DNA of 64,000 bases from a virus (IMGVR_UViG_3300031134_000466); one strand, 5' to 3'. Counted from the stretch's first letter, positions 4,244 to 54,085 are shown. The notes: generated by a model from the letters alone, not told the origin. A program made the numbers and translations.

Positions 4244-4287
4244 AAATAGTTGAAGCCCTACTGAATTCAGTAGGGCTTCAACTATTT
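4244..4287. terminator. bidirectional hairpin between convergent genes
   Basis: Perfect palindrome aaatagttgaagccctactgaa|ttcagtagggcttcaactattt (22-nt arms). Confidence 0.8.
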
Positions 4288-5107
4288 AACGACCGACATA
4301 ATGCTCTTTCAAAGCACTCCAAGACATAGGGATGATTTCCAAATCAAGAGTTGACAACTCCAAAAGAGCAAGGTTGTTTTTCGAACCATCCATGTCCAAC
4401 CCGATGCTGTGAAGAGTGTACTCATTCAGTCCATCATTCAGCACAGTTTCATGGTCTGCAAAGAAATGGTAATGACCATGAAGGAATAAGTCAGGTTTTA
4501 CTCCATCAACAGCTTGACGCATCATTGCACGTGACTGGTTTGCGTAACGCATCTCTGTTGGAGACCAGATACCATGGTCTTCTCGATGAGACCCGAACAG
4601 GTTCACCCCTGCAGGGCAGTCATGCGCCAGCATGATGTCAGCATGACCATGCATCACTGTCTTGAAGACATCATCCAGAGTAATCTGCTCAGCCTTCCAC
4701 CAGGTTCTATTCTCGGTACGACCAGTGAAGTCAATGCTGTTTGCTCCTCCAAGAGAGACAAAGGTACGACCATTCCACTCCCACCTTGCTCCACGGTCAG
4801 CTACAAGAATGTGAGGGTACTCAGGGTTGTAACGCCAGCCAGGGAACTGTGACGGTTGCAGCTGGCTGATTTGTACATAGTCCTCATGATTGCCCAAAGT
4901 CACGTACAAAACTTGCCCATTTGCCGCGAGACGTTTGTTAGTCTTGTAAAGATACTTTTGCCCATTGTTACCTGGCCAGAAACCGAAATCACCCAGATGA
5001 AGGATGTGCTTAATTCCAAGCTCAGCAAAACGTGCGATTGCGATACCAGCCCAGCCAGTATTACCATGCCAATCGCCTGCTACGCCAACAATGTCAAAAG
5101 TTTCCAT
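4286..5107 (-). CDS. calcineurin-like metallophosphoesterase (PPP-type phosphatase fold)
   Basis: 273 aa. Motifs 'GDWHGN', 'LGDFG', 'GNHED', 'AHDCP', 'LHGHYH'. Confidence 0.8.
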   Translation of the reverse strand: METFDIVGVAGDWHGNTGWAGIAIARFAELGIKHILHLGDFGFWPGNNGQKYLYKTNKRLAANGQVLYVTLGNHEDYVQISQLQPSQFPGWRYNPEYPHILVADRGARWEWNGRTFVSLGGANSIDFTGRTENRTWWKAEQITLDDVFKTVMHGHADIMLAHDCPAGVNLFGSHREDHGIWSPTEMRYANQSRAMMRQAVDGVKPDLFLHGHYHFFADHETVLNDGLNEYTLHSIGLDMDGSKNNLALLELSTLDLEIIPMSWSALKEHYVGR

Positions 5108-5113
5108 GACACA

Positions 5114-5124
5114 AGTGTATCACA
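5114..5124 (-). promoter_or_regulatory. -10 element (TGTGATACACT), leaderless start
   Basis: On the minus strand, TACACT lies 6 nt upstream of ATG 5107. No Shine-Dalgarno sequence. Confidence 0.5.
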
Positions 5125-5148
5125 GATGTTTGAAGAAAAGAACAAGAC

Positions 5149-5838
5149 TTAAGAACGCACAGCGATAGGGTTCAGTAAACCGTCAGTAGTTGGTGCCACT
5201 GGAGGGTTCTGCTCATCCCGTTCGGAAGAATACTTATTGGCGTTATCCATGAAGTCTTGGAAGGTTGGTTCTGAGAAAGCCATGCATGTTTGAGTTGCTC
5301 CCCATTGACTGAAAGCAATCAAACGACCAGAAGGCATGTCAGCATCAGCTGGCCAACTCAGAACAAGTAGCTTATCTTCATGAGTGTCATTCCATTTGTC
5401 AGCAAAGTCTCGAACGAACTCATACCCATCATCAGGGTAGTTAGTGGAAGTCCAAATAACTTTGTGACCTTCCCATTCAGCACGAAGAATCTCTTCGTTA
5501 CTGTAAGGATTACCTCGTGGTTCGATGCTCTCTATAGAGTCAGCGTCAAACGGAGCGGGTGACATGTACCCGTAAGCAGGGATAATCATTGGATGGCGGG
5601 GAACTTCTTCAGTGTAGTCTTCAGGAATGGTCCCGTACTGACCGTCCTTAGGGCTGAACACGAAAGTGTCACCACACTGGGTCAGGATACCGTTAGATGC
5701 GGGCGGAACACTGATACTGCCATAAGCGCTGTTCTGCTCAAGATTAGCTGAAGGTTGACTCAACGCTCCGAAAGCAAGCATAGAAACACCTGCCAGCAGA
5801 AAGCCAGACAAGATAAGTTTAGTTCCACGGTATAGCAT
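5149..5838 (-). CDS. secreted protein, DUF3105-like
   Basis: 229 aa. N-terminal signal/TM segment 'LILSGFLLAGVSMLAFGALS'. The C-terminal pattern 'LLVLSWP..GRLIAFSQWGATQTC' is reminiscent of DUF3105. The family call is tentative. Confidence 0.5.
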   Translation of the reverse strand: MLYRGTKLILSGFLLAGVSMLAFGALSQPSANLEQNSAYGSISVPPASNGILTQCGDTFVFSPKDGQYGTIPEDYTEEVPRHPMIIPAYGYMSPAPFDADSIESIEPRGNPYSNEEILRAEWEGHKVIWTSTNYPDDGYEFVRDFADKWNDTHEDKLLVLSWPADADMPSGRLIAFSQWGATQTCMAFSEPTFQDFMDNANKYSSERDEQNPPVAPTTDGLLNPIAVRS

Positions 5839-5845
5839 GATGACG

Positions 5846-5855
5846 TACTTATCGG
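5846..5855 (-). promoter_or_regulatory. -10 element (CCGATAAGTA) for 5149..5838
   Basis: On the minus strand, TAAGTA lies 7 nt upstream of ATG 5838. It sits back-to-back with the plus-strand TATAAT at 5875. Confidence 0.45.
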
Positions 5856-5871
5856 CTTACACGTATAACCA

Positions 5872-5880
5872 GCCTATAAT
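5872..5880 (+). promoter_or_regulatory. -10 element (gccTATAAT), leaderless ABC transcript
   Basis: TATAAT at 5875-5880 lies 7 nt upstream of ATG 5888. Confidence 0.55.
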
Positions 5881-5887
5881 AGAGGTT

Positions 5888-52729: not shown

Positions 52730-52811
52730 GCTCCATTTCTAACAGCTTGACATCCCATCATTTATCCGATACTGTTGTTACTATACGAACCGAATAGCAG
52801 ATTGAGGTTAT

Positions 52812-53015
52812 ATGCCTGGAATGATGGCTTCCAACAAGAACCGTGCCGTGAACAACGTTGACAGCACTATGTTCGATGATGGTTTCTGGCAGCACCGACA
52901 CTTCAAAGGTAAGCGTCGCACTGGAGCTGCAACTGGTGGTCGCGGTTGGCGTCGAGCTCTTCGCAAGAAGGAGAAGCAGAGCGTCAAAAAGGACATCCGT
53001 AACGACGAAATGTGA
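52812..53015 (+). CDS. small highly basic protein
   Basis: 67 aa. GAGG lies 4 nt upstream and a terminator follows directly. The antisense 107-aa ORF runs through that hairpin, so I rejected it. Confidence 0.45.
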   Translation: MPGMMASNKNRAVNNVDSTMFDDGFWQHRHFKGKRRTGAATGGRGWRRALRKKEKQSVKKDIRNDEM

Positions 53016-53021
53016 ACTGTA

Positions 53022-53065
53022 AATAGGGTCAAAATCCTGATAAACTCAAGGATTTTGACCCTATT
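53022..53065 (+). terminator. hairpin terminator
   Basis: 17-bp arms aatagggtcaaaatcct / aggattttgaccctatt. Confidence 0.8.
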
Positions 53066-53068
53066 TTG

Positions 53069-53097
53069 TTGCTGGATACCGTGTTCTGTGGTAGACT
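53069..53097 (+). promoter_or_regulatory. -35 TTGCTG / 17 nt / -10 TAGACT (TGGTAGACT)
   Basis: 49-nt leader with an AAAGGG RBS before ATG 53147. Confidence 0.55.
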
Positions 53098-53146
53098 TGA
53101 GTAACATACAACGCAGCATCACACAGTTCACTGAAAGGGTTCCATT

Positions 53147-54028
53147 ATGACTACAAATTTAGGTTTCAGAGCTGAGGTCTCATACGACGCAGTGAAAGAT
53201 TTGACTCTCATGAGTTCATCATCTTCAGACTTCTCTTCTCCTCTTAACTTTGCCCTCACACGAGGTTCTGACGAGGACAAAGCCGTCAGGGCTCTCCTCG
53301 AAGACCAGGGACGAGTAGAATTCGTCAAGTCAGCGGTTTCTTTGAACAACCTTTCCCAGGTAGGTTCTTTCGGTGTTAGAACAGACGGTAATCCTTCCCG
53401 AGCTGACCTGGGTGTTCACAAGAACCTCACTATCGCAGGTAAAGATGGTTCAGGTGTTCTGAACTTCGTCAGAAACTATCTTCTTTGGGCTTACGCTACA
53501 AACACTCGAATCTATGCTGTGAACGCTCCAGCTGACATGTACGGTGCTGTGAATTACTTGCGTACTGACAAACTGGTTCGTATCGACTCAGGAGATGAGC
53601 CGAACATTGATTCCATCTGGAGTCAGTACGATGCTGATGTTGCTGCTGGTCGTCCTGTGCTTGTGTTGGTGAACAGCATTGGTGATATCGAAGACCAGGA
53701 TGAGGTGGTTGCAAGTTTCCTTGCCCATGTTGACACACGCAAGTTCGAAGTTTACGCTCTTTCTTTCTCAACATTCCAGGAAGAGCTTCCAGAAGACACT
53801 CATTACGAGAACTTCTTCTGGCGAGTTGGTGTTGACGCTGAGCACACTACAGGTTTCATTGGTGACACTCTTCCTGAGATTGCATCTTACATGATGAAAG
53901 AACATGTAGGAATTCCTCATGAGAACCCTCGTGGCGTGCTGTGGTTAAACAGAAATGCTGAGCGTTACGAACGAGTTATCACCTATGTGGTGCCTCGTCG
54001 TTTCTGGGAAGACAGCCTGAACTTCTGA
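53147..54028 (+). CDS. hypothetical protein (possible degenerate P-loop fold)
   Basis: 293 aa. 'IAGKDGSGVLNF' and 'VLVLVNSIGDIED' loosely resemble Walker A/B but lack the canonical GK[ST]. Confidence 0.5.
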   Translation: MTTNLGFRAEVSYDAVKDLTLMSSSSSDFSSPLNFALTRGSDEDKAVRALLEDQGRVEFVKSAVSLNNLSQVGSFGVRTDGNPSRADLGVHKNLTIAGKDGSGVLNFVRNYLLWAYATNTRIYAVNAPADMYGAVNYLRTDKLVRIDSGDEPNIDSIWSQYDADVAAGRPVLVLVNSIGDIEDQDEVVASFLAHVDTRKFEVYALSFSTFQEELPEDTHYENFFWRVGVDAEHTTGFIGDTLPEIASYMMKEHVGIPHENPRGVLWLNRNAERYERVITYVVPRRFWEDSLNF

Positions 54029-54037
54029 TTTCAGACA

Positions 54038-54085
54038 ATTGAGGGACCTGTGCTTGTAATTAAAGTGCAGGTCCCTCAATTTTTT
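54038..54085 (+). terminator. intrinsic terminator
   Basis: attgagggacctg / caggtccctcaat followed by tttttgt. Confidence 0.85.

Follow-up and report, generated by a model that had tools for sequence, protein, structure and literature searches.

The question raised by a 64,000-nt stretch of DNA from a virus (IMGVR_UViG_3300031134_000466; the whole stretch, at its full length, is hereafter called the window, and positions are counted from its first letter) is what role is played by the long and mostly perfect hairpins that punctuate it. The window has ~45% G+C, is 92% coding and carries 69 genes (a set refined against the calls on identical contigs), with intergenic DNA amounting to 7.7%. A first-pass annotation of the same DNA regarded many of the hairpins as terminators, possibly also as RNase III or recombination targets, and the region as an accessory one assembled from independently acquired transcription units. 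The comparisons reported below suggest, with a probability of about 0.75, that the hairpins are transcription terminators, bidirectional at convergent junctions, which divide a giant phage-like actinobacterial element into short units. They are best read as ordinary in kind, i.e., terminators at unit boundaries, though with stems of unusual length and with loops whose orientation changes from strain to strain. On this assignment they would provide a sequence-only map of the transcription units of an uncultivated giant element.

An inverted-repeat search and a separate enumeration of the window identified 17 perfect hairpins, the stems being 12-24 bp and the loops 0-12 nt long, and 23 hairpins when near-perfect ones are included, in agreement with the first-pass count of at least 22 hairpins with 13-23-bp, mostly perfect arms. 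The four examples named there were all recovered (4242-4289, 29609-29662, 32487-32542 and 39276-39328), and two further hairpins lie beyond the range 4244-54085 that it covered (1532-1571 and 63174-63224). The 17 perfect stems of at least 12 bp compare with none in 20 dinucleotide-preserving shuffles of the window, and the 20 stems of at least 10 bp with 1.3 in the shuffles. Each hairpin has an RNA folding energy of about -23 to -44 kcal/mol, and for the 16 that were folded against shuffled sequences the energies are -27 to -44 kcal/mol and the z-scores range from -5.8 to -12.9, none of 200 shuffles folding equally well. Perfect stems occur at 2.66 per 10 kb, compared to 0.57 in 545 kb of bacterial dnaK loci (4.7-fold), and stems of at least 15 bp number 15 in these 64 kb against nine in the 545 kb of bacterial DNA (~14-fold), so that the description of the hairpins as unusually long and perfect is justified.

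All of the hairpins are intergenic despite the high coding density, and in 21 of the 23 the hairpin starts 0-30 nt from a stop codon. When only gaps of at least 35 nt are counted, hairpins are present in 9/10 convergent, 13/25 tandem and 0/12 divergent gaps (Fisher p = 1e-4 when the divergent gaps are compared with all gaps that contain a 3' end, and 2e-5 when they are compared with the convergent ones). The sole convergent gap lacking a hairpin is that between the PARP and DUF805 genes, and in two 99%-identical strains the same spot holds a perfect hairpin with 22-bp arms and no DUF805 gene. Such a restriction to 3' ends fits terminators and is not predicted by DNA-binding or recombination sites. 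It also lends positional support to the earlier proposal of terminators between convergent genes, of which eight had been counted; the convergent placement holds, while the number becomes nine gaps with 10 hairpins, two of them in the DnaK gap. The hairpins are listed below, with a strand only where one is assigned.

1532-1571: hairpin with a 16-bp perfect stem, in a tandem gap 5 nt past the SNF2 helicase stop (-27.2 kcal/mol, z -6.2)
4242-4289: 24-bp perfect palindrome, convergent, between the DUF285 pilin-like gene and the metallophosphatase gene (z -12.6); the minus-strand gene has its stop codon within the stem
8190-8237: hairpin with a 20-bp perfect stem, convergent, between the genes for a 523-aa membrane protein and the vWA-TerF protein
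13348-13391: hairpin of 18 bp, 24 nt past the RNR small-subunit stop
14064-14105: hairpin of 15 bp, 14 nt past the dCMP deaminase stop
14340-14390: hairpin of 22 bp, convergent, between a 78-aa open reading frame (ORF) and the YqaJ-RNaseT exonuclease gene
18293-18329: hairpin of 17 bp, 24 nt past the MazG stop, with an A-rich 3' arm and no U-tract
24261-24293, plus strand: near-perfect G+C-rich hairpin downstream of the NT5C gene, with CTTGTTTT behind it; shaped like a canonical terminator, the plus strand folding better
26095-26137: hairpin of 17 bp, 12 nt past the 590-aa pilin-like gene and upstream of PARP, with no U-tract
29609-29662: hairpin of 24 bp in a convergent gap
30465-30509, plus strand: hairpin with G-U pairs that folds on this strand only and spans the start codon of an ADP-ribosyltransferase gene at 30500
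32487-32542: hairpin of 23 bp, convergent, between the Band7/SPFH gene and a 106-aa gene
34350-34384: hairpin of 17 bp with one mismatch, followed by TCTTTTTT on the plus strand, in a convergent gap
39276-39328: hairpin of 22 bp with one mismatch, convergent, between a 351-aa gene and an RNA ligase gene
41179-41213: weak A+T-rich hairpin of 12 bp, upstream of the LAYTG surface-protein gene
42714-42758: hairpin of 20 bp, an A-tract being paired to TTTTTCTTATTT, between the LAYTG protein gene and dnaK
44698-44741: hairpin of 17 bp, 13 nt past the dnaK stop; first of the pair in this convergent gap
44758-44799: hairpin of 19 bp where the 209-aa gene of the minus strand stops; the other member of that pair
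47201-47232: G+C-rich hairpin of 12 bp, after the DnaB-like gene
51717-51753: hairpin of 15 bp, convergent, between the PNKP and ADP-ribosyltransferase genes
53021-53066: hairpin of 18 bp, 6 nt past a 64-aa gene (52821-53015)
54032-54086, plus strand: near-perfect hairpin with ATTTTTTG at its end, separating the 293-aa gene from the second RNA ligase gene
63174-63224: hairpin of 21 bp with one mismatch, 16 nt past the NadE stop, closing the 8-gene NAD operon

In the proposed mechanism, a stable stem-loop encoded directly past the stop codon would fold in the RNA and stop or end the transcript, and between convergent genes one palindrome could act for transcripts of either strand: an outer 5' arm rich in A on one strand is, on the other, an outer 3' arm rich in U. 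The outer halves of the stems are indeed A+T-rich (17-30% G+C) around a G+C-rich core (inner halves 50-75% G+C). Their 3' side is T-rich over A-rich, with 4.5 T vs 3.0 A in the best 8-nt window (Wilcoxon p = 0.0013), and in the outer half of the 3' arm T exceeds A in 14 hairpins as opposed to five. The arrangement resembles that of known bidirectional intrinsic terminators, in which one G+C-cored palindrome with an A-rich 5' and a T-rich 3' flank lies between converging stops, as in 9/10 convergent gaps here. It differs from them in the greater length and perfection of the stems (15-24 bp, against mostly 12-14 bp in the 545-kb bacterial sample), in the interrupted U-tracts and in the stop codons, which here often lie inside the stem. 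That transcription actually ends at these sites, and that the host polymerase is the enzyme concerned, we infer.

Several observations weigh against termination. The U-tracts are weak and interrupted, mostly with 4-5 T in 8 nt: at least five T in 8 nt are found in 16 of 31 hairpin-directions and at least six in only five, so that the earlier remark that U-tracts are often lacking was roughly right. Canonical tails are present at 24261, 34350, 42714, 44758 and 54032; several hairpins have no U-tract at all (26095, 30465, 41179, 47201 and 63174), and at 18293 the polarity is reversed, the 3' arm being A-rich. With purified mycobacterial RNA polymerase, no termination was obtained at hairpins lacking a U-tract (PMC3993855), hence the five without one may not be autonomous terminators. 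Furthermore, a standard terminator scan of positions 1-20000, which requires at least five T in 8 nt directly past the stem, returned 15 sites vs 17.5 expected, i.e., no excess, and caught a single listed hairpin, 4242-4289, three times in different registers. As this generic scan relies on a strict T-run and, for promoters, on a -35 box, it is uninformative for the element studied here.

Some of these observations also speak for the main competing explanation, in which the hairpins act mainly after transcription, either by blocking 3'-to-5' exonucleases or by serving as RNase III sites; termination would then be left to Rho or be imprecise, and RNase III would cut read-through transcripts into stable single-gene mRNAs. 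RNase III accepts a duplex of ~20 bp or longer, and nine of the stems contain a perfect duplex of at least 20 bp, within that range. About half of the hairpins have no usable U-tract, which, given the in vitro behavior of the mycobacterial enzyme at U-less hairpins (PMC3993855), also favors a role of this kind. On the other hand, a stabilizer or an RNase III site does not require the T-over-A polarity of the 3' side nor the five canonical tails listed above, and no RNase III gene was found among the Pfam assignments of the window proteins. A post-transcriptional role for the hairpins as a whole is thus considered unlikely, though it could coexist with termination, and the U-poor subset may consist of 3'-end stabilizers or processing sites, which is compatible with the terminator reading. 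The hairpin at 30465-30509 possibly serves translational control rather than termination.

The first-pass annotation had assigned the U-less hairpins to the I-shaped terminators of Actinobacteria. This class was proposed for mycobacteria and other members of the phylum. The likeness lies in stable hairpins placed directly after genes and devoid of a clear U-tail, and it extends to the setting, since the DnaK, NucS, sortase-type signal and -10-only promoters of the element point to an actinobacterial host; in contrast to I-shaped terminators, about half of the hairpins here have imperfect U-rich tails within the stem base. The I-shaped class itself is contested experimentally, as its autonomous termination was not reproduced with the purified mycobacterial polymerase, which needs at least an imperfect U-tract (PMC3993855).

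Comparison with related contigs (designated by L numbers), which were retrieved from many metagenomes by exact-protein look-ups, yielding near-identical and 93%-identical contigs, and by a pattern scan, indicates how the hairpins are maintained. Two distant relatives, L016 (72% protein identity) and L018 (63%), are syntenic with the window and carry hairpins of the same kind at matching 3' ends. In the orthologous gaps after MazG, exonuclease and RNR and before the 523-aa gene, these hairpins are unrelated in sequence to those of the window; for the hairpin downstream of MazG (18293), for instance, the position is kept in both relatives and the sequence is not. Stems of at least 15 bp are also found on 147-420 kb IMG/VR viral contigs that carry the same fused exonuclease, and mostly not on the ordinary-sized contigs retrieved alongside. 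Hairpins of this style are thus characteristic of the lineage as a whole rather than of the region at hand. In a more remote relative (L019, GCA_011800935.1, a 725-kb contig with 41% exonuclease identity and 38% G+C), a perfect hairpin with 31-bp arms, the longest found in the lineage, lies at 12057-12119, directly after the exonuclease gene.

The hairpins might also be copies from a dispersed repeat family (REP/BIME- or MITE-like), or palindromic operators of a single regulator, and a few short words are common to pairs of them, namely GTTGAAGCC (4242 and 26095) and GCCCTGACT (14340 and 44758). The longest common word is however 9 nt and six pairs share at least 8 nt, against a mean of 9.1 nt and 5.1 pairs in composition-matched random palindromes; in addition, orthologous hairpins are unrelated in sequence and none has an Rfam match. 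Since the words are no longer than those of random palindromes, this explanation was rejected and is regarded as hardly credible. The absence of any shared sequence beyond chance rather implies that each hairpin is constrained as a structure.

Among closer relatives, 12 hairpins have non-identical orthologues, at a sequence divergence of no more than 7%. Five compensated pair changes were detected in their stems (two at 13348 and one each at 8190, 29609 and 39276), together with ~7 one-sided changes, mostly at stem ends or yielding G-T pairs. Both changes at 13348 are present in eight related contigs, and at 8190 an intermediate state is preserved, four contigs having the mismatch and two (L009 and L012) the compensated pair.

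At 8190, 14340, 29609 and 39276, and in the hairpin downstream of PARP (L001 11309-11361 compared with L002), the loop is inverted between strains while the stem is unchanged, the inverted loop being the exact or near-exact reverse complement of the loop of the other strain. The loop at 18293 is probably inverted as well, which brings the tally to 5-6 of the 12 variable hairpins. At 8190 the inversion is seen in six related contigs, and at 14340 in L008, L010, L011, L013 and L014 relative to the window and to L009, L012, L101 and L102. At 29609 the inverted loop of L001 is accompanied by one compensated pair, and at 39276 the whole inner hairpin is inverted in L005 and L006, the stem mismatch being flipped along with the loop. 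An origin of these inversions in assembly was judged unlikely, as the k-mers used (31 to 141) exceed the arms, which have no more than 24 nt; besides, both states were obtained with different pipelines and co-vary with strain-specific substitutions. Each state is met repeatedly in assemblies made independently, and its distribution follows the strain lineages.

Small loop inversions at hairpins are known in plastid non-coding DNA. The creation and maintenance of hairpins by replication template switching, with its footprints, has been described (PMC8794818). Arm-to-arm copying of this kind would both flip loops and keep stems perfect. All the footprints predicted for it, i.e., inverted loops with intact stems, multiple compensated changes and long perfect stems, are present in the hairpins considered here; the described cases are those of rRNA and microRNA genes and of plastid spacers, while here they would be the terminator hairpins of a virus-like element. 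It is tentatively proposed, as a possibility short of an even chance, that the window belongs to a ~0.78 Mb virus-like actinobacterial element with self-homogenizing terminator palindromes, in which frequent arm-to-arm template switching keeps stems of 15-24 bp perfect. In that event, template switching would, as a mutational mechanism, shape how transcription is punctuated across a whole genome. Should it be what lies behind the inverted loops and the compensated stems, the population would represent a natural data set on the upkeep of palindromic RNA structures.

Putative promoters are represented by a -10-like motif, G[GA]TAGA[CA]T, which resembles the -10-only promoters of Actinobacteria. 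Fifteen copies are present in the window, 10 of them in the intergenic 7.7%, a strong enrichment; all 10 point at the gene that follows, from whose start eight are less than 60 nt away, and the spacing is kept in L016 and L018 before the MazG and dNMP-kinase genes and, in L016, before RNR. A generic sigma-70 scan of positions 1-20000, which needs a -35 box, found no excess over shuffles. The intergenic copies are the following.

10728-10735, minus strand: -10-like GGTAGACT, 42 nt before the start of a 207-aa gene
12296-12303, plus strand: -10-like GGTAGACT, 28 nt before the RNR small-subunit start, with equal spacing in L016
17581-17588, plus strand: -10-like GATAGACT, 9 nt before the MazG start (8 nt in L016 and L018)
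18386-18393, plus strand: -10-like GATAGAAT, 36 nt before the start of the dNMP-kinase/methylase gene (33-34 nt in L016 and L018)
46212-46219, plus strand: -10-like GGTAGACT, in the gap before the DnaB-like gene, 146 nt upstream
49484-49491, plus strand: -10-like GGTAGACT, 28 nt before the NucS start
50714-50721, minus strand: -10-like GATAGAAT, 47 nt before the start of a 162-aa gene
53090-53097, plus strand: -10-like GGTAGACT, 49 nt before the 293-aa gene, between the hairpins at 53021 and 54032
60248-60255, plus strand: -10-like GATAGACT, 75 nt before a 405-aa P-loop gene; candidate internal promoter
61577-61584, plus strand: -10-like GGTAGAAT, 6 nt before the start of a 215-aa gene; leaderless-type arrangement

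The sites at 6-9 nt from a start codon suggest leaderless mRNAs. Taken together, hairpins and strand changes would delimit ~40 units for the 69 genes, 25 of them with a single gene. According to the proposed model, the 64 kb would be cut into ~40 short units by the hairpins and by -10-type promoters with no conserved -35 element, and variable genes would be gained and lost between such units on a conserved backbone. The first-pass annotation had listed several single genes with their own promoter and terminator. Units delimited by a hairpin or a strand switch do include PARP, the LAYTG protein, DnaK and an RNA ligase (39328-40449), as well as RNR, MazG and the 293-aa gene, the latter forming with its motif at 53090 and the flanking hairpins 53021 and 54032 a complete one-gene unit. 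The vWA gene and NadE, also on that list, are instead the last genes of a 6-gene and an 8-gene run, respectively. The -10-like motif was found for 10 genes only and, among the units just named, only for RNR, MazG and the 293-aa gene.

The comparison of related genomes suggested in the earlier annotation does show presence and absence of whole cassettes, as in the following case:

27678-28521, minus strand: DUF805 gene cassette, 36% G+C; absent in L001 and L002, which have 81 bp with the perfect 22-bp-arm hairpin instead

In addition, L001 has an extra 202-aa gene 4 nt upstream of the hairpin at 29609, and both events separate strains whose aligned sequences are 97-99% identical. In relatives at 63-72% protein identity, the genes that vary are those for vWA, methylases, a lipase and the 590-aa pilin-like protein, along with two small genes and the two pilin-like genes accompanied by the metallophosphatase; the backbone formed by SNF2, ABC, RNR, dCMP deaminase, exonuclease, MazG, dNMP kinase, signal peptidase, Wzy and NT5C is syntenic in all relatives. 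No gene-level indels were found over 21 kb at 93% identity. The 346-aa gene beside DUF805 (28522-29602) is 85.5% identical to its counterpart in L001 (11388-12468), the flanking 11 kb being 98.9% identical; judging from this alignment, it is a local hotspot of divergence or recombination.

The cassettes raise the question of whether the hairpins might be DNA-level recombination sites, attC-like or targeted as cruciforms. The two indels among close strains adjoin hairpins (DUF805 standing in place of one, the 202-aa gene 4 nt before 29609), the variable genes of the distant relatives lie beside the hairpins 1532/4242, 8190, 14064/14340, 18293 and 24261/26095, and the loop inversions reveal palindromes that are active at the DNA level. 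Breakpoints, however, fall in 9/10 hairpin-bearing gaps compared to 6/11 other gaps, an excess that is not significant (p = 0.15) and gives no evidence that hairpins direct insertion, so that a link of cassette boundaries to the hairpins is not supported. Like integron attC sites, the hairpins are found at the 3' ends of single-gene cassettes; unlike them, they have no conserved core sites, shared sequence or extrahelical bases, their stems being perfect, promoters are present, gene orientation is mixed and no integrase or recombinase domain was detected by Pfam in the window. Moreover, a pure DNA site would not avoid divergent gaps, where no hairpin is found. Recombination sites are consequently a very unlikely explanation.

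A similar comparison can be made with phage morons, independent promoter-gene-terminator units inserted between the backbone genes of lambdoid phages. Here too there appear to be one-gene units with a promoter-like motif and a hairpin, some of which are absent in a close relative and some deviant in G+C. In contrast to morons, the backbone genes RNR, MazG, exonuclease and dNMP kinase are packaged likewise, which identifies the architecture as a general style of the genome and not as a mark of foreign inserts. Most variable genes have an ordinary G+C content. G+C content was said to vary widely from gene to gene, which proved overstated: the mean is 0.453 and the standard deviation 0.037, against 0.019 expected from sampling for the 69 genes, and only five lie beyond two standard deviations (vWA 0.56, dCMP deaminase 0.55, 32546-32866 0.54, DUF805 0.36 and 55365-55652 0.36). 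It does not separate variable from backbone genes, as DUF805 and vWA are the only deviant variable genes and dCMP deaminase, a backbone gene, is equally deviant. With a hairpin style that is lineage-wide and backbone genes that are syntenic, the region is not a special island, and the accessory-region interpretation is only partly supported. The genome would instead combine a conserved backbone with exchangeable one-gene units, many of them tied to NAD and ADP-ribosylation.

As for the nature of the element, window positions 2446-23323 are 93-95% identical to parts of three independent contigs of ~780 kb (L008, 782,326 bp; L009, 776,377 bp; L101, 788,683 bp), and the exonuclease family is also present on contigs of 482, 617, 638, 696, 725, 828 and 885 kb. 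The largest known phage genome is given as 735 kb in a 2026 review (PMC13282480), and no report of phage genomes of ~780 kb was found in the literature; should the ~780-kb contigs be complete phage genomes, the known size range would extend past 735 kb. Capsid, portal and terminase genes are absent from the Pfam assignments of the window. The indications of a tailed jumbo phage are indirect, namely a phage-type gene content and the occurrence, on most of the retrieved IMG/VR viral contigs of 147-420 kb, of the fused exonuclease with a PNKP gene no more than 7-9 kb away. A megablast search with 20 kb of the window against 50,697 phage records gave no match, and a scan of IMG/VR for close relatives with the exonuclease alone returned nothing; when alignment was added, only relatives of 27-31% identity were obtained, on jumbo viral contigs. 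The element was not found in GTDB species genomes.

The host fits an actinobacterium. DnaK is 73% identical to that of Parafrigoribacterium (Microbacteriaceae), and this, with NucS and the LAYTG surface protein, is in line with an actinobacterial setting. Distant homologues of the helicase and the exonuclease occur mainly in phages of Gordonia, Rhodococcus and Propionibacterium. PARP is closest (40%) to proteins of jumbo Xanthomonas and Stenotrophomonas phages.

Neither a tRNA scan nor an Rfam scan of the window gave any hit. Among its proteins, the nucleic-acid enzymes recognized by Pfam are an SNF2 helicase, the RNR small subunit, two dCMP/cytidine deaminases, the YqaJ-RNaseT fused exonuclease, MazG, a dNMP-kinase/C5 methylase fusion with an intein, RNase H, NucS, PNKP, two RNA ligases and NT5C. 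Genes related to the envelope comprise a signal peptidase, a Wzy-type ligase, three paralogous pilin-like proteins and the vWA-TerF protein, and those related to NAD comprise PARP, two ADP-ribosyltransferases and a NAD-synthesis operon. DnaK is present too, together with a surface protein whose translation ends with LAYTG followed by a membrane anchor.

A few of these genes have peculiar features. The dNMP-kinase fusion (18430-21147) is a single 905-aa ORF, in which a dNMP-kinase-like domain is joined to a C5 cytosine methylase split by an intein (Hint and intein-splicing domains); L018 has the kinase part only, and in L016 the kinase part is joined to something else. NAD consumers, i.e., PARP with a WGR domain (26372-27676) and ADP-ribosyltransferase toxin-like proteins (30500-31465 and 51758-52729), are encoded in the same window as an 8-gene NAD-synthesis operon (55747-63158) with two NadE genes and a cytidylyltransferase-like/NMNAT-type protein. 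The synthesis and utilization of NAD+ in jumbo phages is, as far as its subject goes, the topic of a published survey (PMC11662467).

The same cysteine knuckle (e.g., MCYPKPGPRCSAHA) is found at the N-termini of four proteins, namely NT5C, the 346-aa protein and both ADP-ribosyltransferases, which start at 23434, 28539 and 30500 on the plus strand and at 52729 on the minus strand; speculatively, it may be a zinc-binding or targeting module. Lastly, a pilin-like N-terminus (…SSKAAIDLASIMVGVIIIGLIGGVI…) is common to the three paralogues 1636-2751, 2847-4235 and 24311-26083, one of which has DUF285 repeats, and their C-terminal domains are divergent. The pilin-like members differ in kind and place among the relatives (14500-15990 in L016, 12165-13748 in L018).

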